64,000 nucleotides of DNA from Candidatus Woesearchaeota archaeon. Lineage in GTDB: Archaea; Nanobdellota; Nanobdellia; Woesearchaeales; WJIZ01. How positions within the stretch are numbered: position 1 is the first letter of the stretch; every line of letters starts with the position of its first letter. Where the stretch lies: the NCBI GenBank assembly GCA_014729995.1, contig WJIZ01000029.1, positions 12,779 to 76,778 of the forward strand, written 5' to 3'. Position numbers and translations under genes: made by a program. Shown in pieces: positions 1 to 64,000 of the stretch. Below the pieces are notes generated by a model, which saw nothing but the letters and a program-made list of their open reading frames with translations, was not told the origin of the DNA and did no database searches.

Positions 1-1940
1 CTGTTAAATTGGGAGCCTACACACTTGATGGTAAGCATAAAGCACACCACAGGATAGCAAACCACTATCCAAGCAGTAATGAGCCTAGTTTCCCATGGAC
101 TGATACTTCAGAGTGGTACGCTTACTCACTAACTGACGACGGCACACCAATCACAGTTGATGGCGCTTTGGGCGATTGGAGCGGAGCATCAAAATTATTT
201 ACTGAGTGCGACGCAACCCATCAGACCACAGGAGGCAATGTGCCAATAAACAGGTGCTTTGATATGTACGCAACAGTATATGGAGATACGCTTTACATTG
301 GCATTGATTATACAGATGATACAACCGACGATTCGCCAAATACGAACACAGATGGCGCAAAAGTGCTTTTTGCAGTCCCTTATTGGATGCAATATAGTTC
401 GCCATTTAGCATTGGTGAAGAGTCATGCCACAGGATAGAGTTTTACAGTGTGGACGATTTAGGCAATCCTGAGCCAGTTCAGCACCAATGTGTATTCGTA
501 GACAAGACAGGTCCAGGAATAATCAAAAATTACGAAGGGCCTTATTTCGCTGATACCATAAACAACATAAAAGTCGAATGGATAAACAGCAATACAAAAA
601 TCAAAATCAATATAATTGATGACGGAGTTCACAAGTCTGGAATAGCAGAGACAAAATACAGGGTAAAGCAAGTTAACGACGAATACTGTTGGGGAACCAT
701 GGATTGCACAGGAGCAGATGCAAGTGATGTGGGCTGGACAATATTTAATAACCCTCTTTACGGGGAATTCAATATAGGTCAGGAATCATGCCACTTAATC
801 GAAGTTTACAGCGAGGATAATGTAGGCAAGAGCGCTACGCACAAGCAATGTGTATTTGTGGACAACACCTATCCAACTCCGGAAAAGACAGTTGGCAAGC
901 CAAGAAGCAAGTTCATGTGGGATGACTTTGGAGAGTCATTCTATCCTGTCAAGGATAAATGCTGGAGTGCAGATATGTCAGCATGCAACGGAGACATTGA
1001 TTGTGAGATAACAGCATGCCGTGCAGATCCAAACTGTATTGAGTGCTGGAAAACTACTTTGATGACTCCAATCTCGCTCAACTGCATAGACCAGGGGCCT
1101 CACCCAGTCGATAACGAGCACGTATGCTTTCAGGTTGGCCTGGACGGAACAGATGTTACAGACATGTACTGTGGCGAAGAACACTATAATGGTATAATGA
1201 CAAACGACGGCTTCTGCTGTGTAGATCATGAGATAGATCCATTCTATTTTGGGGAAACAACCTACCACAATCTGGCTTATTACTGCGAAGACGCACTTGG
1301 AAACAGCAACAAAGCCATACTGGATGACGAGAAATTCAAGGTAGAGAAGACAGCCTTCAACATAACCATCAACAAAAAGTGGAACGTGATATCAACGCCG
1401 GTGAAGCTGCTTGACGACTCGATGGACCAGGTATTCGCAGATATAAAAGATGACGTAGTAAGTGTCTGGTCATACGATGCTATGGCAGATGAATGGGATT
1501 ACTATATCGCAGACGACAACCCTAAAAATGACTTCCTGACAACTATGGTTCCGGGAGACGGCTACTGGGTATTCGCACTAAACGATACTGTGCTTGTAAT
1601 CGGGGGCGAGCTTATGAGCCCTGCGATGGCACCGCCAAGCAAGCCTATTAAGGGAGATGCATGGAATTTGGTCGGCTATTATGGCGCAGATGATGAGCTG
1701 GGATACTTTGGGCCGGCTGGAAACGGAGACCCTGCAGAGTGTGTTTTCTTTTCACTCTCTGATTCAATGTTCGACATTGGATGGACAGGCCTTGAGACAT
1801 ACTGGGAGCCGCTTAATCCGTACATGTGGGTTTCCTACCAGAAAGCCGACAACCTTGATCCTGGCGCAGGATACTGGATTTTTGCAACAGAAGACGGTGT
1901 TTACGCACCTACCACAGACTGTACAGGTTTGTGGTCTTAA
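1..1940 (+). CDS. Secreted Cys-rich protein, 5' partial (frame open from the window start). Contains an internal duplication: ESCHRIEFYSVDDLGNPEPVQHQCVFVDKTGP and ESCHLIEVYSEDNVGKSATHKQCVFVDNTYP.
   Basis: Long ORF 9..1940 open to the window edge. High Cys content. Internally repeated module seen in the translation. No TM segment at the C-terminus. Confidence 0.6.
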   Translation, partial: VKLGAYTLDGKHKAHHRIANHYPSSNEPSFPWTDTSEWYAYSLTDDGTPITVDGALGDWSGASKLFTECDATHQTTGGNVPINRCFDMYATVYGDTLYIGIDYTDDTTDDSPNTNTDGAKVLFAVPYWMQYSSPFSIGEESCHRIEFYSVDDLGNPEPVQHQCVFVDKTGPGIIKNYEGPYFADTINNIKVEWINSNTKIKINIIDDGVHKSGIAETKYRVKQVNDEYCWGTMDCTGADASDVGWTIFNNPLYGEFNIGQESCHLIEVYSEDNVGKSATHKQCVFVDNTYPTPEKTVGKPRSKFMWDDFGESFYPVKDKCWSADMSACNGDIDCEITACRADPNCIECWKTTLMTPISLNCIDQGPHPVDNEHVCFQVGLDGTDVTDMYCGEEHYNGIMTNDGFCCVDHEIDPFYFGETTYHNLAYYCEDALGNSNKAILDDEKFKVEKTAFNITINKKWNVISTPVKLLDDSMDQVFADIKDDVVSVWSYDAMADEWDYYIADDNPKNDFLTTMVPGDGYWVFALNDTVLVIGGELMSPAMAPPSKPIKGDAWNLVGYYGADDELGYFGPAGNGDPAECVFFSLSDSMFDIGWTGLETYWEPLNPYMWVSYQKADNLDPGAGYWIFATEDGVYAPTTDCTGLWS

Positions 1941-10567: not shown

Positions 10568-11050
10568 ATGGATTATAAAAACATCTTCTCTTTTGATATA
10601 AAGTGGAGCTCTAAGACAGTCAGCTTATTCATCTTTCTATTAATCCTACCTAATTTCTTAGGCATGATCAATCTTTCGACAAAAACAGGCTTCAAGATTC
10701 ATTTCTTTCAGTACGCAGTTTTTCTAGCAGCAATCATATATGGACCAAAAGGCGGTCTGTTATCAGGATTCGTCGGCTCAACATACTCCGCTTTTATAAT
10801 GCACAATCCCTACATCGCTGTAGGCAACGCAATATTGGGCTTCTTCACAGGGCTTTTCATAAGATATGGCTCAAAAACAATCTTGGCAGTTCTTTTAGCA
10901 TATATTATACAGCTGCCTTGGCTTATACTAACAGATTATTTTTTAGTGCATCTTCCTATGTCTTTTATAATGCCCTTAATCATGGCATTATTTTTCTCAA
11001 ATATAGTCTGGGCAATCGCAGCTCATTATACAGCCAAGTTAGTAAAATGA
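10568..11050 (+). CDS. Small polytopic membrane protein resembling an ECF-transporter S-component.
   Basis: About 5 TM helices. HFFQYAVFLAAIIYGPKGGLLSG motif typical of ECF substrate-capture subunits. Its stop overlaps the next start as ATGA. Confidence 0.5.
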   Translation: MDYKNIFSFDIKWSSKTVSLFIFLLILPNFLGMINLSTKTGFKIHFFQYAVFLAAIIYGPKGGLLSGFVGSTYSAFIMHNPYIAVGNAILGFFTGLFIRYGSKTILAVLLAYIIQLPWLILTDYFLVHLPMSFIMPLIMALFFSNIVWAIAAHYTAKLVK

Positions 11051-11436
11051 AGCCTGATTTTGAAAAATATTCTTTAGCATTAATCAAAAACAATAAGGTA
11101 GTCTATTCTTCAGACAAACCGGGCTTAAGACCTCTTGTCAACTGTATAGCTAAAAATAAGGAAAAAAAGGATTGCGCTCTTCATGATAAGGTTATAGGAT
11201 TGGCAGCCGCTAAATTAGTCTTTAATTCAGGTATTGCTGAGAAAATTGTAACAAGTATTATTTCAAAGCCTGCTTTTGACTTTCTGAAAGATAAGCTTGT
11301 TGTTGAATATGATGAAATAGTCAAAAACATCCTCAACACAGAAAGAAAAGTTATCTGCCCTATGGAGAAGAAAGCACTGGAACTCGATGAAGCTTCTTTT
11401 TTGAGACATGTGAACAAGATATTTAATCAAGAATAA
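11047..11436 (+). CDS. Conserved hypothetical protein of about 129 aa.
   Basis: ATG at 11047 overlaps the upstream stop. The ORF-track entry 10918.. is a 5' extension inside the previous gene. No family assigned with confidence. Confidence 0.5.
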   Translation: MKPDFEKYSLALIKNNKVVYSSDKPGLRPLVNCIAKNKEKKDCALHDKVIGLAAAKLVFNSGIAEKIVTSIISKPAFDFLKDKLVVEYDEIVKNILNTERKVICPMEKKALELDEASFLRHVNKIFNQE

Positions 11437-11460
11437 ATTATTATTGTTTTATAGAAAAAC

Positions 11461-11556
11461 CAACAACATAGCTGGCTGACGGAGGTTGCCCCCTTCGGGG
11501 TGTCAGCGAGCATTTTTGCTAAGCAAAAATGCGACAGCCCATGTTGTTGTTGTTGG
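11461..11556 (+). ncRNA. Candidate structured RNA element with a three-way junction. An outer stem CAACAACAU/AUGUUGUUG encloses a CUGAC-stem hairpin capped by a cUUCGg tetraloop and a second hairpin GCAUUUUUGC-UAA-GCAAAAAUGC.
   Basis: Perfect and near-perfect complementarity read directly from the sequence. A T-rich tract follows at 11556-11575. Confidence 0.35.
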
Positions 11557-11639
11557 TTTTTCTTTTGAAATTATAATCTTATTATTTCCTCAAATCAAAA
11601 CCTATTTAAACAATCTGCATAATTTAAGCTTAAGCCAAG

Positions 11640-11746
11640 GAAAGTATCGTGAAATTCGGTCGCTGGCCCGCAGCCGTTAAAGCCGGAATACTTGCATATT
11701 ACAAGGGTCGAGGATTGTCCGCAGGATTTCTGCGAACATTTTTAAC
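11640..11746 (+). promoter_or_regulatory. Candidate cobalamin (B12) riboswitch-like leader. It resembles the compact AdoCbl-variant class.
   Basis: AGGAAAGUAUCGUGAAAUUCGGUC resembles the conserved GGGAAAG..CGUGAAAUUCG core of Cbl riboswitches. It is followed by GGCCCGCAGCCG, a degenerate B12 box (consensus CCCGCCACUG). A terminal hairpin CGCAG-GAUUU-CUGCG sits 12 nt before the ATG. The context is an ECF S-component plus DUF4430. Confidence 0.4.
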
Positions 11747-12505
11747 ATGTCTAAAAAGCAAAAGCTTAAGCTAAAAAAGAAGAAGAAAGAACAGAAAGAA
11801 AAGCAGAAGCTCTCAACCGAGCAGAGATTAGCAATAAAAGCTGTGCAAAAGCAGCTTCAATTATTGAAACTAAGGGAGCTTTTATTATTGATAGGCTTCA
11901 CAACAGGCGGAGCATTGTTAAGAATTCCGATGCAAGCTATCCCAAGTGCAGAGCCATTAACATTCTTCGCAATACTATCAGGCTGGCTTTTTGGTAGGAA
12001 AAAGGGAGCAGCTGTAGGAGCTTCTTCATTATATATCTCAAATTTCTTCATGTTCGGCGGACAAGGTCCCTGGAGCATTTTGCAGGCAATAGGCTTTGGC
12101 ATAGCGGGCTGGCTAGGGGGCTTGTTAAGAAAAAAAGCATCATACTTAGAAGTGATGATAATTACAATAATTGCTACATTGGTTTTTGAGGTAATTATGA
12201 ACGCTTTCACCCCACTTATGGTGGGCTCATCTATTTTCATGGCTTTTGCGCTTGCATTGCCTTTCACGCTGATACACCTTGCTTCCAACTTCATTTTCGC
12301 TTTAGTATTACCTTCAACAAAAAAATTTGTCGAAAAGACAGGAGGCTTCAATGAAAAGGATATTTGTGCTAGTATTCTTGATAAGTATAATATTAGCACT
12401 AAGCTTGATTGGATTAAGAAATTTAGAAGAAGACCGAAGCACGGGCAAGGCAACATTGATAATAAGGACGATAGGAAGCACAGCACAGGAACAGGTGGAG
12501 CTTGA
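11747..12505 (+). CDS. Membrane protein resembling an ECF-transporter S-component, with a Lys-rich N-terminal tail. The 3' end overlaps the next gene in another frame.
   Basis: Five to six TM helices (GFTTGGALLRIPMQAIP..., GFGIAGWLGGLL). No ecfA or ecfT in the window. Confidence 0.5.
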   Translation: MSKKQKLKLKKKKKEQKEKQKLSTEQRLAIKAVQKQLQLLKLRELLLLIGFTTGGALLRIPMQAIPSAEPLTFFAILSGWLFGRKKGAAVGASSLYISNFFMFGGQGPWSILQAIGFGIAGWLGGLLRKKASYLEVMIITIIATLVFEVIMNAFTPLMVGSSIFMAFALALPFTLIHLASNFIFALVLPSTKKFVEKTGGFNEKDICASILDKYNISTKLDWIKKFRRRPKHGQGNIDNKDDRKHSTGTGGA

Positions 12506-14135: not shown

Positions 14136-15122
14136 ATGAGGGTGGTTTTTGCATTAATGTTCTTAGTTCTTTCCAGTTTTTGCTGTGCCCAGAATTTGGA
14201 TATAAGCGTTTATGAGGAGACAGGCCAGGGAAGAAGATTCGGCAATATCAATGCAGAGCCTGGCCAGACAGTGGAATTCTTCATCCATGCGGAGAACCGC
14301 AACCAGGACAGGAGCGACGATTCACAGGACATAGAGGACATCGAGATAAAAGCCACTATAGAAGAAATTGATGAAGGCGAGGATATCGAAGAGGAATATG
14401 ATGATTTTGACCTCAATGCCAAACAGGATGAAAGCCTCTCTTTCAGGCTGAAAATCCCTTTAAGGGTAAGGGATGCCCTTTATGACATTAATATCGAGTA
14501 CGAGTATGAGGAAGATGGCAAAAAATTCTCAGGCAGCACAGATTATTTTCTGGATGTGGACAAGGAAAAGCAAAATCTTTATCTTAAAAAACTCGGATTC
14601 CGGCCGGCAAGCATAAAATGCAATGAAATTTCATACCTTGAGATAGGGCTCATGAACCTTGGCACTTCAGACGCGGGCATTGTAATAACAGCCAGCAATG
14701 ACGAGCTTGATTTCACCCTCAGAAGGGCATCCTTTCTTGAAGCTTACCCTGGGGATGATATATACGAAAACAGGTTCGCCATTAAAGTCCCAAAGCAGGC
14801 CGAAAGCAAGCCCTACAAATTTGAAATCACAGTTAACGACAATAATGGTAATCTTCTGAAAAGGGAAACAGCCGAGCTTGATGTTAGCTGCCTTTCCGAA
14901 AAAACCGAATCTTCAGGGCAGCAGCAACAGCAGCAGAAGCAACAGCAGCCAGAGGAAAAAGAAGAGGATATAATCCCATCAGAACAGCCTAAGCTACAGC
15001 AGCGAGAGGAAATAATAGTGGAAAGCAGCAGCAGCTTTCCGGTTTATTTAATCATCCTGTTTGTCTTAATAGCCATTGCAGCAGTATTGTTGATAATATT
15101 GCTAAATAAAAAGAAACCATAG
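14136..15122 (+). CDS. Paralogous surface protein: signal peptide, acidic repeat module, poly-Gln linker and C-terminal TM anchor.
   Basis: MRVVFALMFLVLSSFCCAQN. IEEIDEGEDIEEEYDDFDLNAKQDESLSFRLKIP parallels a module in the previous gene. QQQQQQKQQQPEEKEE. C-terminal FPVYLIILFVLIAIAAVLLIILL. Confidence 0.6.
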   Translation: MRVVFALMFLVLSSFCCAQNLDISVYEETGQGRRFGNINAEPGQTVEFFIHAENRNQDRSDDSQDIEDIEIKATIEEIDEGEDIEEEYDDFDLNAKQDESLSFRLKIPLRVRDALYDINIEYEYEEDGKKFSGSTDYFLDVDKEKQNLYLKKLGFRPASIKCNEISYLEIGLMNLGTSDAGIVITASNDELDFTLRRASFLEAYPGDDIYENRFAIKVPKQAESKPYKFEITVNDNNGNLLKRETAELDVSCLSEKTESSGQQQQQQKQQQPEEKEEDIIPSEQPKLQQREEIIVESSSSFPVYLIILFVLIAIAAVLLIILLNKKKP

Positions 15123-15149
15123 TAATCATCCGAAACTGCATCACCCAAG

Positions 15150-15270
15150 CTGAAGTATGAAGGTGCAATTTCTTTAACAGCTGATTTCTGGTACAATAAG
15201 AAATGCATAGGCATTTCTTGTGTGCCAGAAAATCTTTGATTTTCTGAGCATGCCAAAAAAGCAGAAGCAT
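15150..15270. repeat. Copy A of a ~120-bp non-coding interspersed repeat. It contains two 9-bp hairpins, AAGAAAUGC-AUAG-GCAUUUCUU and CAGAAAAUC-UUU-GAUUUUCUG.
   Basis: About 94% identical to 55515-55635 in the same orientation. Both copies are intergenic. Confidence 0.7.
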
Positions 15271-29993: not shown

Positions 29994-30109
29994 TTCTTAT
30001 GTAACTACCGTAAAGTAATATATATAAAAAATCGAAATATTTATATATAATTAATTTCAAAAATATACTCAATCCTATAATAATGTGGATTTATATATTT
30101 TATTTGCAA

Positions 30110-33100
30110 ATGAAAAAGAAGGTGGGCCTTATGAATTCTAGAATAATTTTTTTAGTAGTTTCAATGCTGTTTGCCGCAGGGATTGTTTCAGCTGTCAACT
30201 GCTGGCAGTATGATGATTCGCAGTCAGACTGTGAAGCTGCAGAAGACTGCCAATGGGAGCAGGATGACTGGGGAGGCTGGTGCCAGGAAAAAGGTTGCTG
30301 GCAATTATGGGATCAAACAGACTGTACTAATTCTACTGATGATCTAAATTGTTTATGGAGATCTTCAACTTCTTCTTCTGGTTGGTGTGAACAAACTTCT
30401 TGTTATTCATGGGAAGGAACCAATGCCGCAACATGTGTTAATAATTCTGCAAATAAAAATTGTCAATGGCAAAATCAATGTTTTGGATACAATCAAAATG
30501 TAAACTGTCCTTCTCTTGGAATTGATGAATGTAGTAACGTAACTGGTTGTACTTGGGGTATGTGTGAAGAAGTAGGCTGTTGGAAATATGATTATACCGA
30601 TCAAGACACATGTCAAGCACAAACAGGTTCTATGGGTAATTCTTGTCGATGGGATAATAATGGAGAATATTGTTATGAACTAGGTTGTTGGGATTATGAT
30701 AATACTAATTATACTGCTTGTGTAAACAATGCTAATGGTTTAGCTTGTCAATGGAATGCTGCTTATCAAAGATGTGAAGAAATTCAATGTTGGAAGTTTG
30801 ATTATACTAATTCATCTGTATGTACAACAGATGCTCTAAATAATTATAACCTAACCTGTACTTGGGATGGACAATATTGTATGAATTCTCAATGTTCTAA
30901 TTTGAATACTCAATCTAATTGTGATACTACACAAGGATGTTCTTGGAAAACACAAACTGGAGGAGGATGGTGTGAAGAAGCACAATGTTGGATCTTCGAC
31001 CAATGGAACGGTGGAACAGAACAACAATGTAATGGTACAAATATAGAACCAGGTAATGATGCATATTCTTTTAATCTAAGTTGTGAATGGGATAATGGTG
31101 CTTGCTACCCTAATGTAGATGAAAACTGTTCTACATTCACAACAGAATCTGGATGTATGGATACATATTATTGTTGGTGGCAATGTTCTGACTGGGACAA
31201 TCAATCAACTTGTACATGTAATGATCCTAAAGATTTAGGAGAAACATATGATGATAACTTCTTCCAAAAATGGAATCCTGGATGTTATATATTCGATATA
31301 AATTATGATTTATGTAATGCTACTTATGCAGGAACAAATGCAAGCTACTGCGAGAATGACACTTCTCTTAATATTCCCTATGACTGCTCATGGCAAAATG
31401 GCACAGGCCAGGAAGAATGCCTTGCTGTTTCGGCATGCCACGATGTTATTGGCTGCCAATTTTCGGCACAGCTTGGCACAGGTCTTTGCGATCCCGAGCC
31501 TGGACATGCATTTCAAAGCCATATAGAGAATGAGGGGCTCAACTGCACAATGATAAACAACACGCAGTTATGCAATAATATACCTGCATTATCTACCTGC
31601 TGTGAATGGAAAGAAGGAACATGCAAGGAAAAGCTTGGCAAAGAATGCTGGGAAAACATGGATAAAAAGATGGAAGATGATTTTGATGGAATTAAATCAT
31701 GTGCAGATGCAAGTATCTTTGCAAACCCAGAAAAAAAATGTAATGAGATGGGAGGTTATCCTTTATTTATGCCTTGTAAATGGAATTCTTCTATAAGTAA
31801 ATGTGAATTTAAATCAACTCAGATATTTGGAGATGCAAGCCAGACTTTATCCCTTATAGAAAATCAGAAAAATTGTGAAGCTGCTGGTGGAAAATGGGTT
31901 CAGGAATGGTACTGCGAGGGAAACAGAAGTGTTCCAGCAGGAAGATGTGAACAGAAAGCAGACGAAGAAAATAATTGTGACGTTGCATGTTTCGCTTGTG
32001 AATTCAAATTCGATGGTACAAACTTTACTAATATAACTAATGCAAAAGCTACATGTTATGGATCAGATTTAGGTTATTGTGAATTTACTGCAGATTCAAC
32101 AGCAAAAAACGGACTAGGAACTTGCAGAGCAAAAGAAGAATTCAAGGCAGGTATTGCTTCTGATTGTACTTCTGATTGTGGAAGTTGTACTTATATGGGT
32201 AATCCTAACGCTGCTTCAAACTTTGATGGTAACAAACAATATTCAAATTGTAATTCTCCAAGTTGTTATTGTGGACAAGCATATGAATTTGGAGATGTAA
32301 AATGTAAATGGGTAAATGATAATACTAGTAATCAAGGAGGATATTGTGTAGATTCAACAACAAAAACCTGCCAGGATAGCTGTGACAGGTGTTATTCAAA
32401 ATCTGACTGTAATAATGATGGAAGAATGGCTTTCAATGCAATAGGAAGTTGTGAATGGGTAACAGAATCTGGAGAAATATCTACCAGTGCTACAGAAGGT
32501 ATCTGCAGAAAGAAAGGAAGCGGAGAAATCTGTTGGGATGGAATTGATAATGATGCAGACGACCTAATTGATTGTGCTGATAATAATTGTTATTCAGATA
32601 GTTTCTGTGGTTTTGTTTCAGGAGACTGTCCTAGTATTACAACCGCAGCAGTATGTAATGCAACTCAATTAGATAATGGATTAAATTGTACTTGGAAATC
32701 TGATGCATGGGGTAGCTTCTGTGACTTCCCAGGATCAGATTGTTATGAAAGAGATGGAACAAACCAAACCTATTGTGAAGCAGCAAGCGGATGTCAATGG
32801 GGTTCTGACTCTATGGGAGGTTCAGGATGGTGTGAACAAGATTGGGATTCCGCAAACGATTGTTGGAGCATGATAACTGAAGCTACTTGTACTGGTGGTT
32901 GTGTATGGACTAATGATACTTGGTGTACTCAAAATCCTACAGATCAATGGTGTCAAGACTTTGGAGGATGGTGTGATCCTGCAGCATTCGCTCCTAAGAA
33001 CTGCTGGAACAGAGATGATACTAATCAATCATGGTGTGAAAATTTAACTGGTTGTTTCTACACAAACTCAACAGGAATGTGTATGGAACAGGGATGTTGG

Positions 33101-36100
33101 AATTATGATTCTAACGTAACTGCATGTAATCAACAAGATAATTGTCAATGGAAACAGGACGATTGGCAACAATGTGAAGTAGACTGGAGTGTAAATTGCT
33201 GGTTATATGACGATAATGAAACACAATGTGATACTGCACCAGAATGTACTTGGTTTGATCAAGGCAGCAATTGGGCATATTGTGGCAACAAATTTGATGT
33301 TTGCTGGAATTACGGTAGTGATTCTAGTTCATGTGATTCTGATTCTAATTGTTACTGGACTGATTGGAATAGTTGTGAAGCTATATGTAGAGATGAAAAT
33401 ACTTATGGTACTGAATCAAGCTGTAACGCTGTAGATGGATGTCATTGGAAATCAGGATGGTGTGAAGATACTAGCATGGGTGGAAGCAGTAGTGGAGTAG
33501 ATTGTGGAAGTAAAGATGAAAGCACTTGTATTGCTGCAACCGAGTGTAAATGGAAAAATCCTGGATGGTGTGATCCTATAGGTTTCTCTGGAGGATCAGC
33601 AGCAAATTCAGCAGGAAGTGGTAATAATGTAGGTTCTGAATGTTGGAAATATGATGGAGAAGAAGCATTATGTACTGACGCTTCTACTATAAACATTAGT
33701 TGTTCATGGATGGACGAACCTTGGCCACATTGTGAACCTGACTGGGGTTCTTCTAATTGCTGGGATCGTAATGAAACTACTTGTAATGAAAGTTGCTGGT
33801 GGAGTGAAGAAGGATGGTGTACTAATGCTAATGAACAATGTAAAATGAATTCTTCTTTATCAGAAAATTCAACTTTATGTGATGCCAATAGTGCTTGTAA
33901 TTGGGCTACATTTAATGAGGGATGTAGAGAAGATTGGAACTCATTAGATAGTTGTTATCAAATTTGGGATCAAGATGATTGTACAAATGCAACAAATAAT
34001 CAGACATGTAAATGGGAAACTTATTATGATCAATTTGATGGTCAAGAAAGAACGGGATGTAGACCTAAATTCGAAGCTTGTCGTGATTTCAGTTTAAGTT
34101 CTTCAGAATGTAATGCTTTAGACGGTTGTTTCTGGAATGAATTTATGGGTATGTGTGACGCTGTTTGTTTCAATATGTCTTTAACAGAACAACAATGTGG
34201 TGCAATCGCTGGTTGTACTTTTGGAGGAGGAAGCTGTGAACCTTCACTATTTACAAAGCAAACTGCAGGAGAATGTACTGGTGCTGGAGGTAAATGGTTA
34301 AACGGATGGTGTAATCCTCCTGGACAAGGAAAAATGTTTGCAGGTATGGATATGGGTCCACCAGTACCAATAGTTACAGAAAATTGTAATTCTAATGGAG
34401 AAGTGGCTTATGCAGATATTTGTGGTGTTGGAATTAAAGATACAGGTAATAGTTTTATTTTTGGTTCACAAACTGCCGATTTTAGTAATGTAGGAGTATG
34501 TAATGGTCAGAATGTTATAACCTTTGGATCAAGTAACTTTGGTATGGGAAGTGCAAACCAAGGTCAGGGAACAAGCCCTGTAAAATACTATGTATATCTT
34601 GATACAGATGGATCAACAACAGGAGGATGTTCGCCAGTAAATAATAAATCAATGAAAGGTTATGAATTCTTCCTTAAGCTTGAATCAACATATAACAGTA
34701 CTCTAGAAAAATCAACAGAAACATTTACTGCAAAGAGATGCAGTTTATCTGGATCTACTTGGAAGATTGCAGATATCAGCCTAAGTACATGGAAACAACA
34801 AATGTGTTCCATGGCAGGAGGGCCTTTAATAGCTGTAACAAAAACAGATCTAGAAAAATTCCCTGAATTATATGATTCAGAAAAAGACGTAAGAGTTTAT
34901 GTGGCAATGGCTGACAGCAGTCGTAATGCAACAGTACCTTATGATGAAGCAGGACCTGGTTGGTATACACCAGGAGCTGTTGATTTCAGTTTAGAAAGTC
35001 TATTCGGAATGGGATCTGATACAGCTAAGAATGAAGATATCATGAAGAAAGGTTATGTTGAACATGAAGACTGTTATTTAACAGGTGATGAAGATAAGGA
35101 TGGAAATGCAGATTGTGATGATTGGGACTGTCAGTATGCTTCTGGTTGTGAAAGTTCAGGAGTTAATGCAGACAACTATACAGATACTTCAATGCCAAAA
35201 ATTACAGGAATTAAGATTGAAGAATACACAGATTCTGCACTAATCATGTACTCAACAAATAAACCAACAAATGGAACACTAGCATTCTATCATAACGATT
35301 CAACATGCGCAACAACTAACGCAACAATCTATGATAAAGGAGTAACCACAACTTCCATGAGAAATCATAAACTATGGCATGATGGACACATCTACAACGA
35401 TGGTGGAGTTAGTAGTTTAGATTATGCTTTAAACAGTAGTACAGATTACTATTACAAATTGAAAGTTTGTGATTCAGGAGGAAAATGTTCTGTAAGTAAA
35501 TGTTCAAGTTTCAAAACAGCTGGAACAAGATGTGCTTATTGTAACTTCGTTACATTGATTAACTCTCCATCAGGATGGACTGTTTGGTATGATCTTAATG
35601 CAAATGGAATATACGAACACGAACAAGGTAATGTTTGTGGTCCAAAAGCTGGAATGAAAACAAACTATACTGAAGGAAGAAAGGCTAACATTAAGATGAC
35701 AGAAGATGATAGTGTTGTTGTTATGGAATTCCTGAATGTAACTTTAACAAAAACAGGACTTACATCTAAAACAAGAAAAATCTCAGAATCTGGATCATTG
35801 ATCCATGATACAACTGAAGATTATGTTGGTATGCCTTCCGCAACAAGGGATAAGATTATCAATAACCTGCATCCTGAACTCTGCAGGATAACCATTCCGA
35901 CAACAGGAGGAGATTGCTCTAAGCTTTATCATTGTGATGACAATGGCGACAATTGCGTGGACAGGACAAGCGAGGAAGGGGCTGATTTGGTTTCTTCTAC
36001 CTCAACAAGCTGTACGTGGACTATACCGTATTGTGAGTTCTCAACATGGGATGCAGATGGAAATCCGTCAGGAGGCACAACAACAACTACTTCATCTTCA

Positions 36101-36685
36101 GGCGGAGGCTCCGGAGGCGGAGGAGGGGCAGGCGTAAGCGTATCAACAGAGAAATTTGAGCATGGCAAGATATACCTGAAAGGCGAAGAAGGAAAAAAGG
36201 TAAGATACATGCTTTATGGGAATTCGCATACAGTAACTATACAGGGCATAAGAGCAGAAGAAGTTGATGTTCTTGTAAAGTCAGTCCTGATACAGGACAC
36301 CATAAAGCTTGGAGAGACAAAATATTATGATGTCACAGAAGACGGCAAGAGCGATATAGGAATCAGAGTGCACAGCATAGCCCTTAATGCAAGCTATGCT
36401 GAGCTGATTATTTCCCTGCTCAGCTATGAGCCGGAGCCGCAGCCAGAAGAGCAGCCAGAGCCGCAGCCCCAACAGCCTATTGAAGAGGAGCCGCCCGTAA
36501 CAGGCCATGTAGCAGAAGAGCCCGAAGAAGGGGAAGAAGAGCCTCAAGGGGGCACCTGGCTCGTAATATCCTTGATTGCAGCAATCGTGGTTATAGCGGC
36601 TGTAGCTGTAATAGCTGTTAAGAGGAAATCCATCCAGGCTCAACAGCATCATGAAAAGCAGCCAAGTCAAGAGAAACAGCATTAA
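30110..36685 (+). CDS. Giant surface protein of about 2190 aa. It has a signal peptide, more than 40 tandem ~33-aa Cys-rich CW-x-(Y/W/F)D modules, many N-x-S/T sequons, a Gly/Ser linker, a Pro/Glu-rich stalk and a C-terminal TM anchor.
   Basis: MKKKVGLMNSRIIFLVVSMLFAAGIVSA. Alternative starts at 30083 and 30131, the latter with a GGTGGG SD. Repeats such as GCWKYDYTDQDTCQAQTGSMGNSCRWDNNGEYCYELGCW. C-terminal WLVISLIAAIVVIAAVAVIAVKRK. Confidence 0.75.
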   Translation: MKKKVGLMNSRIIFLVVSMLFAAGIVSAVNCWQYDDSQSDCEAAEDCQWEQDDWGGWCQEKGCWQLWDQTDCTNSTDDLNCLWRSSTSSSGWCEQTSCYSWEGTNAATCVNNSANKNCQWQNQCFGYNQNVNCPSLGIDECSNVTGCTWGMCEEVGCWKYDYTDQDTCQAQTGSMGNSCRWDNNGEYCYELGCWDYDNTNYTACVNNANGLACQWNAAYQRCEEIQCWKFDYTNSSVCTTDALNNYNLTCTWDGQYCMNSQCSNLNTQSNCDTTQGCSWKTQTGGGWCEEAQCWIFDQWNGGTEQQCNGTNIEPGNDAYSFNLSCEWDNGACYPNVDENCSTFTTESGCMDTYYCWWQCSDWDNQSTCTCNDPKDLGETYDDNFFQKWNPGCYIFDINYDLCNATYAGTNASYCENDTSLNIPYDCSWQNGTGQEECLAVSACHDVIGCQFSAQLGTGLCDPEPGHAFQSHIENEGLNCTMINNTQLCNNIPALSTCCEWKEGTCKEKLGKECWENMDKKMEDDFDGIKSCADASIFANPEKKCNEMGGYPLFMPCKWNSSISKCEFKSTQIFGDASQTLSLIENQKNCEAAGGKWVQEWYCEGNRSVPAGRCEQKADEENNCDVACFACEFKFDGTNFTNITNAKATCYGSDLGYCEFTADSTAKNGLGTCRAKEEFKAGIASDCTSDCGSCTYMGNPNAASNFDGNKQYSNCNSPSCYCGQAYEFGDVKCKWVNDNTSNQGGYCVDSTTKTCQDSCDRCYSKSDCNNDGRMAFNAIGSCEWVTESGEISTSATEGICRKKGSGEICWDGIDNDADDLIDCADNNCYSDSFCGFVSGDCPSITTAAVCNATQLDNGLNCTWKSDAWGSFCDFPGSDCYERDGTNQTYCEAASGCQWGSDSMGGSGWCEQDWDSANDCWSMITEATCTGGCVWTNDTWCTQNPTDQWCQDFGGWCDPAAFAPKNCWNRDDTNQSWCENLTGCFYTNSTGMCMEQGCWNYDSNVTACNQQDNCQWKQDDWQQCEVDWSVNCWLYDDNETQCDTAPECTWFDQGSNWAYCGNKFDVCWNYGSDSSSCDSDSNCYWTDWNSCEAICRDENTYGTESSCNAVDGCHWKSGWCEDTSMGGSSSGVDCGSKDESTCIAATECKWKNPGWCDPIGFSGGSAANSAGSGNNVGSECWKYDGEEALCTDASTINISCSWMDEPWPHCEPDWGSSNCWDRNETTCNESCWWSEEGWCTNANEQCKMNSSLSENSTLCDANSACNWATFNEGCREDWNSLDSCYQIWDQDDCTNATNNQTCKWETYYDQFDGQERTGCRPKFEACRDFSLSSSECNALDGCFWNEFMGMCDAVCFNMSLTEQQCGAIAGCTFGGGSCEPSLFTKQTAGECTGAGGKWLNGWCNPPGQGKMFAGMDMGPPVPIVTENCNSNGEVAYADICGVGIKDTGNSFIFGSQTADFSNVGVCNGQNVITFGSSNFGMGSANQGQGTSPVKYYVYLDTDGSTTGGCSPVNNKSMKGYEFFLKLESTYNSTLEKSTETFTAKRCSLSGSTWKIADISLSTWKQQMCSMAGGPLIAVTKTDLEKFPELYDSEKDVRVYVAMADSSRNATVPYDEAGPGWYTPGAVDFSLESLFGMGSDTAKNEDIMKKGYVEHEDCYLTGDEDKDGNADCDDWDCQYASGCESSGVNADNYTDTSMPKITGIKIEEYTDSALIMYSTNKPTNGTLAFYHNDSTCATTNATIYDKGVTTTSMRNHKLWHDGHIYNDGGVSSLDYALNSSTDYYYKLKVCDSGGKCSVSKCSSFKTAGTRCAYCNFVTLINSPSGWTVWYDLNANGIYEHEQGNVCGPKAGMKTNYTEGRKANIKMTEDDSVVVMEFLNVTLTKTGLTSKTRKISESGSLIHDTTEDYVGMPSATRDKIINNLHPELCRITIPTTGGDCSKLYHCDDNGDNCVDRTSEEGADLVSSTSTSCTWTIPYCEFSTWDADGNPSGGTTTTTSSSGGGSGGGGGAGVSVSTEKFEHGKIYLKGEEGKKVRYMLYGNSHTVTIQGIRAEEVDVLVKSVLIQDTIKLGETKYYDVTEDGKSDIGIRVHSIALNASYAELIISLLSYEPEPQPEEQPEPQPQQPIEEEPPVTGHVAEEPEEGEEEPQGGTWLVISLIAAIVVIAAVAVIAVKRKSIQAQQHHEKQPSQEKQH

Positions 36686-54747: not shown

Positions 54748-55506
54748 TTATCTTGCACTCTTCTGGTAGGAATTAATAGCATCCATCAGCTCGGATTTGT
54801 CAAAGTCAAGCCACGGCTTATTAGAGAAATAAATCGCCGAATTCAGCGAATCCCACAAAAGCAGGCCTGTCTTAAGTTTTTTTCTTCCGTTCACGATGAT
54901 TATTTCGGGCGGGATAAAATAAGATGAGTATGTGTTGCTCTTGATCATGTCTTTGTCTATTGTTTCGGGCCCTATTTTTTCTGTCTTGACTTTTCTTGCT
55001 ATAAGCCTGCACGCATCAACTATCTCATCCTGCCCGTTGTAATTTATGCAAAGATTGGCATAAAAGCCGTCATTGTCCTTTGTAGCTGCTATCAGCTCTT
55101 TAATGGGCTCGACAACCTTATGCGGGAGGTTATACCATTTGCCTAATACGCTTATTTTTATCTTTTCCCTTATTATGCTTTCCGCAGCCAAGCCGCGTAT
55201 GAATTTCGCAATCTCTTCCAGGTAATCTTCATCCCTGTTCCTGTCATCAAGCAGGTAAAAAGTGGTTATGGGTATATTAAGCTTCAGCTGGTGCTTTATT
55301 GCATCCAGTATCTTTAAAAGACCATTTTCATAGCTGTTCTCGCTCTTTCTTTTTTCATCTATCCCCCCTAAAGTGATTGCTATGTGTTTTGGTATTTTTA
55401 TCTTTATCTCATAGCTTTTCTCTTTCCCGAATCTCAGCTTGTCCAGCATTGTAAGTTGCCTATTGCTTAAATCATAGAAATCAGCAGAAATCGCATCACT
55501 CCACAT
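54748..55506 (-). CDS. cis-Prenyltransferase (undecaprenyl-diphosphate synthase family), with a divergent N-terminus.
   Basis: C-terminal LLWDSLNSAIYFSNKPWLDFDKSELMDAINSYQKSAR and NYNGQDEI match UppS motifs. Confidence 0.6.
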   Translation of the reverse strand: MWSDAISADFYDLSNRQLTMLDKLRFGKEKSYEIKIKIPKHIAITLGGIDEKRKSENSYENGLLKILDAIKHQLKLNIPITTFYLLDDRNRDEDYLEEIAKFIRGLAAESIIREKIKISVLGKWYNLPHKVVEPIKELIAATKDNDGFYANLCINYNGQDEIVDACRLIARKVKTEKIGPETIDKDMIKSNTYSSYFIPPEIIIVNGRKKLKTGLLLWDSLNSAIYFSNKPWLDFDKSELMDAINSYQKSAR

Positions 55507-55514
55507 TAAAATGT

Positions 55515-55635
55515 GGAGTATGAAGATGCAATTTCTTTAACAGGCTGATTTCTGGGACAATAAGAAATGCTTAGGCATTTCTTGTGTGCCAGAAAATCTT
55601 TGATTTCCTGAGCATGCCAAAAAAGCAAAAGCACT
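55515..55635. repeat. Copy B of the ~120-bp interspersed repeat. It abuts the uppS start, which sits in a CCACAT-TAAA-ATGTGG hairpin.
   Basis: About 94% identical to 15150-15270. Hairpin 1 is conserved. Hairpin 2 carries one disruptive substitution. Confidence 0.7.
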
Positions 55636-55776
55636 CATCCGACAACTAAACTTCAGGCTGTGCCCGAAGGCTTACAAATTTACAATTTGAGAGAGTTGTG
55701 GGTATTCTGCTTTTTTGAGTATAACACCTGTATTAATATGGCAATATTTATAAATATTCGCTAGTAATGCCATATA

Positions 55777-62500: not shown

Positions 62501-64000
62501 CTGAGCCCTTATTCGAAGCCAAAAAAGCCTATTGGCTTGAATCAAAAAGCAGCCAGGCATTGAAGATGAAAAAAACAGGAGGCGGCATTCTTGAATTTAA
62601 TTTAACACAAGGATGGAATCTTTTGCCGTATTTAGCAGGCCAAGAAATGGCTATTTCGGGCTCACTCGGTAATGTCCAGGGCCAATATAGGACAATTTTT
62701 AACTATAACGCATCTGCCCGGAATTGGGAAACATACACTAATGCCAGCCCATTCAATACATTCAGATCCTTTAGGCCTGGAAAAAGCTATTGGATTTACC
62801 TCCCCTACAACCAGACATGGCTCTTTAATTCGTCTTCCGGAATATTCACAAATCCTGATCCATTCATTCCAAAGTGCCAGCCCCGGGAAAGAAGAGACTG
62901 CGGGACAGATATGGGGGAATGCCGCTATGGAACACAGTCATGCATGAATGGAAAATGGGGCCCTTGCTTGAATCGAATAATGCCTGTAGCGGAAATATGT
63001 GACGGGCTGGACAACGACTGCGACGGAATTTCTGACAATAACCTTCACCCTCCCAGTGCGGATAAGCAGCAGGGCGTTTGTTCGGGAAGCAAAAAAGAAT
63101 GCAGCGGCATAAACGGATGGATAGAGCCTGATTATTCTAAAATCAGCAGCTATGAGCATTCTGAATCAAGCTGCGATGGCAGAGACAACGACTGCGACGC
63201 ACTGACAGACGAATCACTCTCTGCTCCGGCCTGCAGTAAGCAGGCAGGCATATGCTATGGAAGCAAAAAGACATGCGGCGGAAGTTCCGGCTGGATAGAC
63301 TGCACTGCAGCTGGCTATGGTACAGATTATCAGTCTGCTGAAACCAAATGCGACCAATTGGACAACGACTGCGACACTATAACAGACGAGAACTGCAATT
63401 GCTATAACGGAGAGACAAGGAATTGCGGCACTGATATTGGTGAATGCCGATATGGCACAGAAACATGCGACATAAACGGAAATTGGGGGAGTTGTATAGG
63501 CGCTAAAGGCCCTGCACCAGATGCCTGCCCTCATGATGGATTTGATAACAATTGCAATGGCGTGGTAGATGAAAAATACTGCAGTGATAATTATTGCTAT
63601 GACTGGAGTTATGCGCCCCCCGATCCTTATGGGGAATTTATCGATACGATTGATTATGGACCATACTGCGCCGATAAAAGACAATGGCGGATTAAGGATG
63701 TTGATAATGATGGATACACCGAGTATTATATGCTGAAAGGAGAAACTCTGAGAATATGGGGATATTGCATCGCAAATACTCTTATAGATCCTACAAGAAA
63801 GGTGGCAGCTTTCAGTGATTTTGCAGCAACACAGAACATAGAATGTTACGATGGGTATTGCGATAGCAGTAAAGAATATTTTTTATGGGAAGATCATCAA
63901 ACCGCCGCCAAAAACTCAATCAGTTTTCCAGGATATCTTTGCGAAGTATGTGATAACTATGGTAATTGTATGAGTTTTGGATGGAAAGCACATCATTTGT
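59560..64000 (+). CDS. Giant secreted protein, 3' partial (at least 1480 aa, no stop before the window end). It has a signal peptide, an N-terminal Cys-rich region, seven or more MopE-like C-D-G-x-D-N-D-C-D-x-x-x-D-E repeats, a central right-handed parallel beta-helix (PbH1/NosD-like) region and a second block of MopE-like repeats.
   Basis: Frame 1 was translated by hand from 59560 (MGGRKLIFLLLVMALVSNVIS/EDS) to 64000 with no stop codon. Alternative ATG at 59503. A TTATATATAA TATA-like box lies at 59491-59500. The supplied ORF track does not list this ORF because it has no stop codon. Confidence 0.8.
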   Translation, partial: MGGRKLIFLLLVMALVSNVISEDSNITNLGQNSALESTKSIQSIPCPITNIALLVSSVACNNQKIDIKLIVYYDVPQDFDAIVEYEIWEDDIRLDDFIDSFKTWESFKDGGTEIFHIFKDIDVSSYENGDPEIYANIIITDPFIGMEICTYTTNTKNIDVENCDCWSGLCCDTANFPYSYYESNDYHICSDPSDIEYRCESSNPGDDVEYRTQKQYCGGGTAQCNGPTSWRIWKTYQDCTIHEYCSNNQCVDCGYHTNYHCLGDDVYWYDDCSYREDLKEDCGSDACTSWSPYCYNNDAWKKRTCYDRYCREGASLGSCQEDSSIETAKVKDCGNNEECMGGVCKIISCYSDADCGNDGYIGSKYCLYGDVHQDYRTYTCSNPGHGDSSCYHFNQPYEIEVCTYGCQNGACIYPSCNSDADCNPDGCYSYEHRDYYCYHPGQVDSACRYLSDGTDRDNDNYDSECGDCNDLNQNINPGASELCNDLDDDCNGATDEGFNNENCRYICRANGYHWSNNGANLNCCGNNPNEASPYEAAESSCSDNHDNDCDGKTDMQDSDCFACNDGDKKPCPMQQGVCQGSYQTCTNNMWPGCTFLNYGQYYESTEISCDARDNDCDANIDEFCQCVVPYGGMQILSDIKFCTGNYKMDGPIFINKSSLNIDCRDTNLIRNYTQSHKATDSGIYLYKQDNIFIGNCNLYDYRWPFHAYDADNIKIINNSFYGSSKKKGVFIKGNNIRVKNNYFSSGYPSLEFRVVDYSSIEDNSFENTGLAVAFTVVHHINQSGNIITNATMGIIMSYTYDLTASQNVITNSTSAVIALNPLFNLRFLNNTISQSNNAIYLNPNPSNELEFKYNNLHNNSVGVLFKRGNNLSFKYNNLKNYINFENRKNKEINLSHNYWGSGDESSIAQNIIDKDDNASYGKAHFRPYYCKPYPTAAISPCPSYLNITLYPGWNLFCLQNKSNLSYSSLFSFDNSKKEYISEPLFEAKKAYWLESKSSQALKMKKTGGGILEFNLTQGWNLLPYLAGQEMAISGSLGNVQGQYRTIFNYNASARNWETYTNASPFNTFRSFRPGKSYWIYLPYNQTWLFNSSSGIFTNPDPFIPKCQPRERRDCGTDMGECRYGTQSCMNGKWGPCLNRIMPVAEICDGLDNDCDGISDNNLHPPSADKQQGVCSGSKKECSGINGWIEPDYSKISSYEHSESSCDGRDNDCDALTDESLSAPACSKQAGICYGSKKTCGGSSGWIDCTAAGYGTDYQSAETKCDQLDNDCDTITDENCNCYNGETRNCGTDIGECRYGTETCDINGNWGSCIGAKGPAPDACPHDGFDNNCNGVVDEKYCSDNYCYDWSYAPPDPYGEFIDTIDYGPYCADKRQWRIKDVDNDGYTEYYMLKGETLRIWGYCIANTLIDPTRKVAAFSDFAATQNIECYDGYCDSSKEYFLWEDHQTAAKNSISFPGYLCEVCDNYGNCMSFGWKAHHL

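Follow-up and report, generated by a model that had tools for sequence, protein, structure and literature searches.

A nested palindromic, possibly MITE-like element between an ECF-S/DUF1893 gene pair and a cobalamin riboswitch in a Woesearchaeota archaeon

Introduction

REP and BIME palindromes of bacteria lie outside genes, just past a stop codon and between co-oriented genes, and their proposed action is to protect mRNA 3′ ends and to insulate transcription units from each other. REPs are built of 20–40-nt units, occur in tens to hundreds of copies and are linked to RAYT transposases. MITEs, exemplified by the Correia elements of Neisseria and the ERIC elements of enterobacteria, are non-coding intergenic sequences of about 100–110 bp with inverted repeats and a long stem that carries internal hairpins. 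Elements of the Correia/ERIC type are frequently transcribed together with the gene that precedes them and can serve as sites of termination or processing. Bidirectional Rho-independent terminators, which follow stop codons and operate on either strand, consist of a 5′ A-tract, a stem and a 3′ T-tract; in bacterial intrinsic terminators the stem is G+C-rich and 5–14 bp long, the loop has 3–8 nt, and the U-run follows at once. A P1 helix with two hairpins is the topology of three-way-junction aptamers and ribozymes such as the purine riboswitch and the hammerhead. In archaea, transcription is terminated at U-tracts of 4–7 U, and a hairpin is not required (PMC8716108). The median length of archaeal MITEs is 104 bp, and most of them lie between genes; a Woesearchaea genome with 105 MITEs per Mb is among the most MITE-dense archaea (PMC11602168).

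Here, we describe a nested palindrome of ~111 bp found in a 64-kb stretch of DNA from a Woesearchaeota archaeon, which was analysed as a whole and is called the window below. The element resembles MITEs, including the archaeal cMITEs (PMC11602168), in its size, its non-coding and intergenic nature, its 16–17-bp inverted repeats, its long stem with internal hairpins and, judged from three distant loci, its absence from the orthologous site of relatives. It differs from them in that no target-site duplication, second copy, cognate transposase or shared inverted repeat was found in the data searched. With REPs it shares the position just past a stop codon between co-oriented genes, but it is a single composite element of an archaeon, and no RAYT was seen. 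The order of A-tract, stem and T-tract after a stop codon, which can be read on either strand, is that of a bidirectional terminator, whereas the host is an archaeon, the 16-bp stem is A/U-rich and encloses a branched insert of 79 nt instead of a short loop, and such structures are not used by other genes in the window. The topology is like that of the purine riboswitch and the hammerhead; both were rejected as identities of the element, which has junction strands of 0, 2 and 2 nt, no conserved core, neither of the CUGANGA/GAAA motifs, no Rfam match and no homologues among the sequences searched.

Results

Location and Fold of the Element

The element occupies positions 11453–11563 of the window, between two genes of the + strand (Table 1). 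It starts 16 nt past the TAA stop codon (11434–11436) of the DUF1893 gene, within a gap of 310 nt (11437–11746). The first-pass annotation had noticed nested inverted repeats after this stop codon, beginning at 11461, i.e., 25 nt from it, in a gap of the same length, and they are indeed present. The outer stem is part both of an explicitly evaluated three-way junction and of the minimum free energy (MFE) fold. The sole open reading frame touching the element is a mechanical 64-aa TTG ORF that continues through the riboswitch. The GC content of the element is 47.7%; the flanking spacer has 18.1% and the window as a whole 40.8%.

The stability of the fold was assessed on both strands. The segment 11455–11565 (111 nt) gave −49.3 kcal/mol on the + strand (z −6.19; none of 200 shuffles was as good) and −45.1 kcal/mol on the − strand (z −5.74). 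When the full feet were included (11452–11568), the values were −54.2 and −50.2 kcal/mol, respectively. Both strands fold almost equally well. In a GC-corrected ranking of all 110-nt windows of the 64 kb, the element was second, and the first and third ranks were taken by two copies of an unrelated repeat. The structure of the element is far beyond chance.

Table 1. Features of the element and of its surroundings (coordinates of the window unless a locus is named)
Feature	Position	Strand	Sequence, basis or remark
ECF-type S component (ECF-S) gene	10568–11050	+	First of the ECF-S/DUF1893 pair
DUF1893/TM1506 gene, 129 aa	11047–11436	+	Pfam PF08973, 1.4e-22; last gene upstream of the element
Outer stem 5′ arm / left terminal inverted repeat	11453–11468	+	AGAAAAACCAACAACA; pairs without mismatch with 11548–11563 in both the MFE fold and the explicit structure
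Junction helix, 5′ strand	11471–11474	+	GCUG; pairs with CAGC 11535–11538; explicit structure, −51.3 kcal/mol
Hairpin 1	11475–11507	+	Lower stem GCUGAC/GUCAGC, one-sided 7-nt internal loop GGAGGUU, cap GCCCC-CUUC-GGGGU; −15.0 kcal/mol alone
Hairpin 2	11510–11532	+	Perfect 10-bp stem GCAUUUUUGC/GCAAAAAUGC, UAA loop
T5 run, first after the upstream stop codon	11513–11517	+	Within the 5′ arm of hairpin 2
Junction helix, 3′ strand	11535–11538	+	CAGC; explicit structure
Unpaired or slipped segment	11539–11547	+	CCAUGUUGU; part of ATG(TTG)4; sequence and energies of two registers
Outer stem 3′ arm / right terminal inverted repeat	11548–11563	+	UGUUGUUGGUUUUUCU; MFE, explicit structure, inverted-repeat search
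T5CT4 tract	11557–11566	+	At the 3′ foot; proposed to be the U-tract signal, of archaeal type, that ends transcription of the upstream operon
TATA box of the riboswitch-controlled gene	11603–11610	+	TATTTAAA; four-locus alignment; kept in L001, L074 and L077; outside the element
AdoCbl-II riboswitch aptamer	11620–11701	+	Rfam RF01689, 42.3 bits (gathering score 36.5)
DUF6580/ECF-S-like membrane protein gene	11747–12505	+	Pfam PF20221; downstream of the riboswitch
Riboswitch in relatives	L001 1447–1527; L074 1211–1294; L077 ~1440–1500		

The anatomy of the element departs in several details from the one first proposed for it. The outer stem, given as 9 bp within 11461–11556, is actually 16 bp long, and the element overruns both of these coordinates. 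The proximal 9-bp register yielded −42.5 kcal/mol, compared to −51.3 kcal/mol when this junction is given the 16-bp distal stem and −54.2 kcal/mol for the MFE. The inner helix cannot form as GCUGG/CC.AGC; on the + strand it is a helix of 4 bp, GCUG/CAGC. Hairpin 2, GCAUUUUUGC-UAA-GCAAAAAUGC, is exactly as first described. In the case of hairpin 1, the cUUCGg tetraloop turned out to be a register error: the 5 C residues face 4 G residues, and the UUCG register has 3 pairs and −9.5 kcal/mol, compared to 5 pairs and −15.0 kcal/mol for the CUUC loop of the MFE. The tetraloop had been a hint of a function at the RNA level on the + strand, and this hint is gone together with the register. A K-turn and an H/ACA motif were also considered for hairpin 1 and rejected, as its internal loop is one-sided and contains no G-A pairs.

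Of the 111 nt of the element, 82 lie within perfect helices. None of the 41 proposed pairs is disrupted, the helices containing a single G-U and no mismatch, and only 0, 2 and 2 nt are left for the junction strands. In the outer stem, which is A/U-rich, 5 of the 16 pairs are G-C. The T at 11469 stretches the left inverted repeat to 17 nt; this 17-mer is found only here and, with one mismatch at its 17th position, on the opposite strand at 11547–11563. The right arm, ATG(TTG)4G, has two TTG units beyond what the left arm needs, which gives the outer stem two registers.

The three-way junction proposed earlier can form on the + strand but is not uniquely defined there: 115 suboptimal folds lie within 3 kcal/mol, and the MFE is a four-way variant. 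The − strand ensemble is dominated by one three-way-junction fold. In its MFE the junction helix is GGCUG/CAGCU, i.e., 5 bp including one G-U pair, which takes the place of an A-C mismatch in the + strand helix, and the internal loop exposes CAACCUCC.

Comparison with Related Loci

For comparison, three syntenic loci (L001, L074 and L077), the nearest relatives among the data, were aligned with the window. Their relationship to it is distant, the flanking proteins sharing 57–60% and 79% amino-acid identity. The order in L001 is ECF-S, TM1506, the riboswitch and a DUF6580 protein 79% identical to that of the window; L074 has the same arrangement, and L077 contains an extra PCC gene. In all three, the spacer of ~160 nt consists of the stop codon, a TATA box and the riboswitch, and the element is absent. 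Their TATA boxes read ATTTAAAC, ATTTAAAG or ATATAAAT and share ATTTAAA, with the aptamer core following ~30 nt later. In the four-way alignment, ~165 nt more separate the stop codon from the TATA box in the window than in the other loci. The element is absent from all three syntenic loci, which are too distant for a clean empty-site alignment. The comparison indicates that the element is lineage-specific, either inserted in this lineage or lost in others. At such distances, an insertion here looks the same as a loss elsewhere or as local growth by duplication and slippage.

The riboswitch downstream of the element belongs to the AdoCbl-II family (RF01689). In this Woesearchaeota (DPANN) archaeon it has its own TATA box and precedes the gene of a DUF6580/ECF-S-like transporter, an arrangement conserved in at least three other metagenomic loci. 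In L001 (47 bits) and L074 (40.5 bits) it scored above the Rfam gathering score, and in L077 it was recognized by alignment. In the window, the hairpin CGCAGGATTTCTGCG followed by AACATTTTTAAC (11720–11746, +) lies directly before the ATG at 11747 and is the predicted terminator-like expression platform of the riboswitch; an equivalent block, GGATCGTGGAG..TCTACGA, is kept in L001, L074 and L077. To our knowledge, riboswitches have rarely been reported from archaea. A full-text literature search found no paper containing both ‘Woesearchaeota’ and ‘riboswitch’, and ‘cobalamin riboswitch’ was not found in the DPANN papers listed.

The element ends ~40 bp ahead of the conserved TATA box, and ~57 nt separate it from the Rfam match. 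A start site ~26 nt after the TATA centre would fall at ~11633, on the first base of the conserved closing helix. Since the element is absent from the relatives and the TATA box separates it from the aptamer, we infer that it is not part of the riboswitch and would lie outside the riboswitch transcript.

Searches for Copies and Homologues

The first-pass annotation had pointed to Rfam and to further copies in the genome as sources of evidence. No Rfam family matched the element, either at the gathering score or at E ≤ 10. A search of the whole window against Rfam 15 at the gathering score returned the riboswitch as the sole match; at E ≤ 10, the region 11300–11900 gave only chance-level overlaps with the element (e.g., Qrr with 14.5 bits, where the gathering score is 50). 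A second copy was found neither in the 64-kb window nor in 22 related Woesearchaeota loci (~124 kb). The window was searched with a 37-mer and with the 17-mer inverted repeat, allowing 3 mismatches in each case, with blastn at word size 7 and with a single-sequence covariance model, the last of which was also applied to the related loci.

Larger collections were searched with sequence patterns. In the GTDB genomes, a set that does not include the source MAG, the pattern CTGACGGAGGTTGN{4,6}TTCGN{4,6}GTCAG gave no related match; its sole match, in an AAA-ATPase-like coding region of an Oscillospiraceae MAG, was judged to be due to chance. In the JGI metagenomes, GCTGACGGAGGN{14,22}GTCAGCGAGC gave 66 matches, all of them in high-GC sequence that reads as coding and none related to the element. 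Most of these 66 contigs (L008–L073; soil and other metagenomes) share a near-identical 38-nt block, GCTGACGGAGGCGGCCGAGGCCGCCGGAGTCAGCGAGC, preceded by GGTGGTC, which we read as a widespread transposase helix-turn-helix coding region of high-GC bacteria. In IMG/VR, patterns drawn from both hairpins, from the junctions and from the terminal inverted repeats had 0 matches. BLAST against phages returned one chance-level match of 31 nt (E 0.4), and BLAST against plasmids returned none.

Mobile-Element Features

The element was compared with the features that define MITEs. Terminal inverted repeats of 16–17 bp are present (11453–11469 and 11547–11563), and the element is small (111 bp, where MITEs are below ~500 bp), non-coding and, like most MITEs, intergenic, being contained in the 310-nt spacer. 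No target-site duplication abuts the inverted repeats: the left flank ends in ...GTTTTAT and the right flank begins with TTTGAAATT. The strings TTATTATT/AAATTAT recur 7–17 nt away on both sides, which is uninformative in a spacer of 18% GC. The copy number in the 64-kb window is one. No cognate IS was recognized, as the inverted repeat occurs nowhere else in the window and no transposase was found among the 27 ORFs scanned. The anatomy of the element is best read as that of palindromic selfish DNA (MITE, REP or ERIC-like) and not as that of an aptamer or ribozyme. This reading is suggested by the inverted repeats, the near-total pairing into helices, the 0/2/2-nt junction strands and the folding of both strands.

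Termination Signals

The distribution of T-runs was examined between the stop codon (11436) and the TATA box (11603). Runs of at least five T occur only inside the element, and a T4 run alone lies before it. The T5 run and the T5CT4 tract have the form expected of an archaeal U-tract terminator, i.e., ≥4–7 T on the coding strand shortly past the stop codon. The other gene ends in the window typically have T-runs with weak structure (MFE −4 to −25 kcal/mol, compared to −44 kcal/mol here), which matches the archaeal rule of hairpin-free U-tracts (PMC8716108). As archaeal termination does not need a hairpin, termination alone does not explain so elaborate a structure. A simple terminator scan showed stem-plus-T sites at the feet of the element on both strands; its matches at 11531–11553 have weak stems of 8 pairs, 3 of them G-C. 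A bacterial-type intrinsic terminator was rejected on account of the A/U-rich stem before the U-run (5 of 16 pairs G-C) and the 79-nt branched insert in place of a short loop.

Other Features of the Window

Genes for diphthamide synthase, TrmB and TreT-type proteins in the window are consistent with an archaeon. An intergenic repeat of ~155 nt is present in two copies on the + strand (~15115–15270 and ~55485–55636), which are 96% identical over a 90-nt core and contain a long hairpin, UUUCUGG..AAGAAAUGC-loop-GCAUUUCUU..CCAGAAA. These copies hold the first and third ranks in the 110-nt structure ranking given above. The repeat has no Rfam match, no obvious terminal inverted repeat and no blastn similarity to the element; its copies could be paralogous small RNAs or members of a dispersed repeat family. 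The occurrence of another structured intergenic element in two copies suggests that the genome carries dispersed intergenic repeats.

Two protein-coding regions also stood out. At 62997–63400 (+), tandem repeats ~174–177 nt long (families D5 and D13) code for motifs rich in Cys and Asp, ‘C-D-x-x-D-N-D-C-D’, and the product looks like a repetitive secreted or surface protein. At 30083–36685 (+), a single ORF of 2,200 aa with a strong positive GC skew is followed by an extremely T-rich spacer; its product is probably one of the giant surface proteins that are typical of DPANN genomes.

Discussion

Judged from sequence and predicted folds, the element is probably unremarkable in kind, a palindromic insertion between genes which serves as, or at least sits at, the 3′ end of an operon. 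We hold with moderate confidence that this insertion is specific to the lineage and that, once transcribed, it gives the ECF-S/DUF1893 operon a structured 3′ end with U-tracts. As the genes on both sides are encoded on the + strand and there is no T5 run between the stop codon and the element, it would most likely be transcribed on this strand as the 3′ end of the ECF-S/DUF1893 mRNA. By origin it would be mobile or selfish DNA, a MITE- or REP-like palindrome that came to lie in the spacer separating the DUF1893 stop codon from the promoter of the transporter gene under riboswitch control. Its T5 runs (11513–11517 and within T5CT4, 11557–11566) may act as archaeal U-tract terminators, and its stable stem system may cap the mRNA 3′ end against 3′-exonucleases. 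The element could also prevent transcription of the upstream genes from running into the riboswitch promoter, which lies 40 bp further on. An intrinsic-terminator-like element and a MITE had both been among the first suggestions for this sequence, and both fit the evidence, with the reservation that there is neither a second copy nor a target-site duplication in the data searched.

The main alternative, though an unlikely one, is that the element is selfish or neutral palindromic DNA with no selected role, either a solo MITE copy or a local palindrome with (TTG)n slippage. Such an origin would agree with the absence of the element from all three syntenic relatives, the lack of conservation in every search, the terminal inverted repeats, the foreign-looking GC content and the TTG/CAA repeat number, which differs between the arms. 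It would also agree with the fact that MITEs are common in some Woesearchaeota (PMC11602168). What speaks against neutral DNA is the state of the helices, as 41 of 41 intact pairs point either to a very recent origin or to selection on the structure, two explanations that the pairing itself does not separate. A mobile origin is further weakened by the missing target-site duplication and by the single copy among the data searched. Moreover, the only T5 tracts past the operon are those of the element, and hence some effect on 3′-end formation is hard to avoid even for a neutral insertion.

It is doubtful that the element is an independent, lineage-specific small RNA gene of ~100–130 nt on either strand. 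The first-pass annotation had named a small RNA as well; the data are compatible with one, but neither conservation nor Rfam nor the anatomy of the junction adds anything to it. The best case is provided by the − strand, in which the ensemble is dominated by a well-defined three-way junction whose helix gains a G-U pair. TATA-like strings (TTATAAT/TTTAAATA) lie 20–55 nt upstream on this strand in an A/T-rich, promoter-like context, and a T5 run follows the stem on both strands (TTTTTCTATAAAA on the − strand). However, TATA-like strings are expected by chance in a spacer of 18% GC, and the one on the + strand, TTTTATAG (11447–11454), would put the start inside the left arm. No homologue was found in the relatives, whereas the adjacent riboswitch is clearly conserved there; there is no Rfam family even at E ≤ 10, and almost no junction nucleotides are unpaired. 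Mimicry of a Shine-Dalgarno or anti-Shine-Dalgarno sequence by the GGAGGU/CCUCC loop was rejected, since a Shine-Dalgarno sequence precedes only 5 of 50 crude gene starts and its use thus looks rare in this genome.

More ambitious roles, in which the element is a functional, lineage-specific structured RNA, can be imagined, and we consider them doubtful too. The element could belong to a new MITE family of DPANN archaea that was domesticated to serve as a hairpin terminator and insulator in the bacterial style, or it could be a stand-alone three-way-junction small RNA, possibly of the − strand, with an exposed loop of 7–8 nt (GGAGGUU/CAACCUCC) acting in trans.

It is very improbable that the element arose in the MAG contig as an artefact of assembly or amplification. 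The sequence comes from a single MAG and no independent contig with the same sequence was found, but the genes on either side are collinear with those of three independent assemblies, and artefactual chimeras are simple large inverted duplications, not three nested palindromes of different sequence with A/T-tract feet. Finally, the earlier suggestion that the element is the 5′ part of an extended AdoCbl-II riboswitch, i.e., a tandem or accessory domain acting with the aptamer at ~11640, can practically be dismissed: it draws on proximity (~57 nt) and on the strand shared with the regulated gene only, the TATA box at 11603–11610 stands between the two, and L001, L074 and L077 all keep the aptamer, the expression-platform block and the TATA box while having no element.

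These results bear on the biology of the host in several ways. The comparison with the relatives shows that the neighbouring cobalamin riboswitch is self-contained and carries a conserved promoter of its own. If the full genome has further copies, the element would define a MITE family of Woesearchaeota; such a family, if real, could be a strain marker and would offer a natural test of the effect of a hairpin on archaeal termination. A streamlined DPANN genome tolerates a highly structured palindromic insertion, and it may use this insertion to form the 3′ end of an operon.
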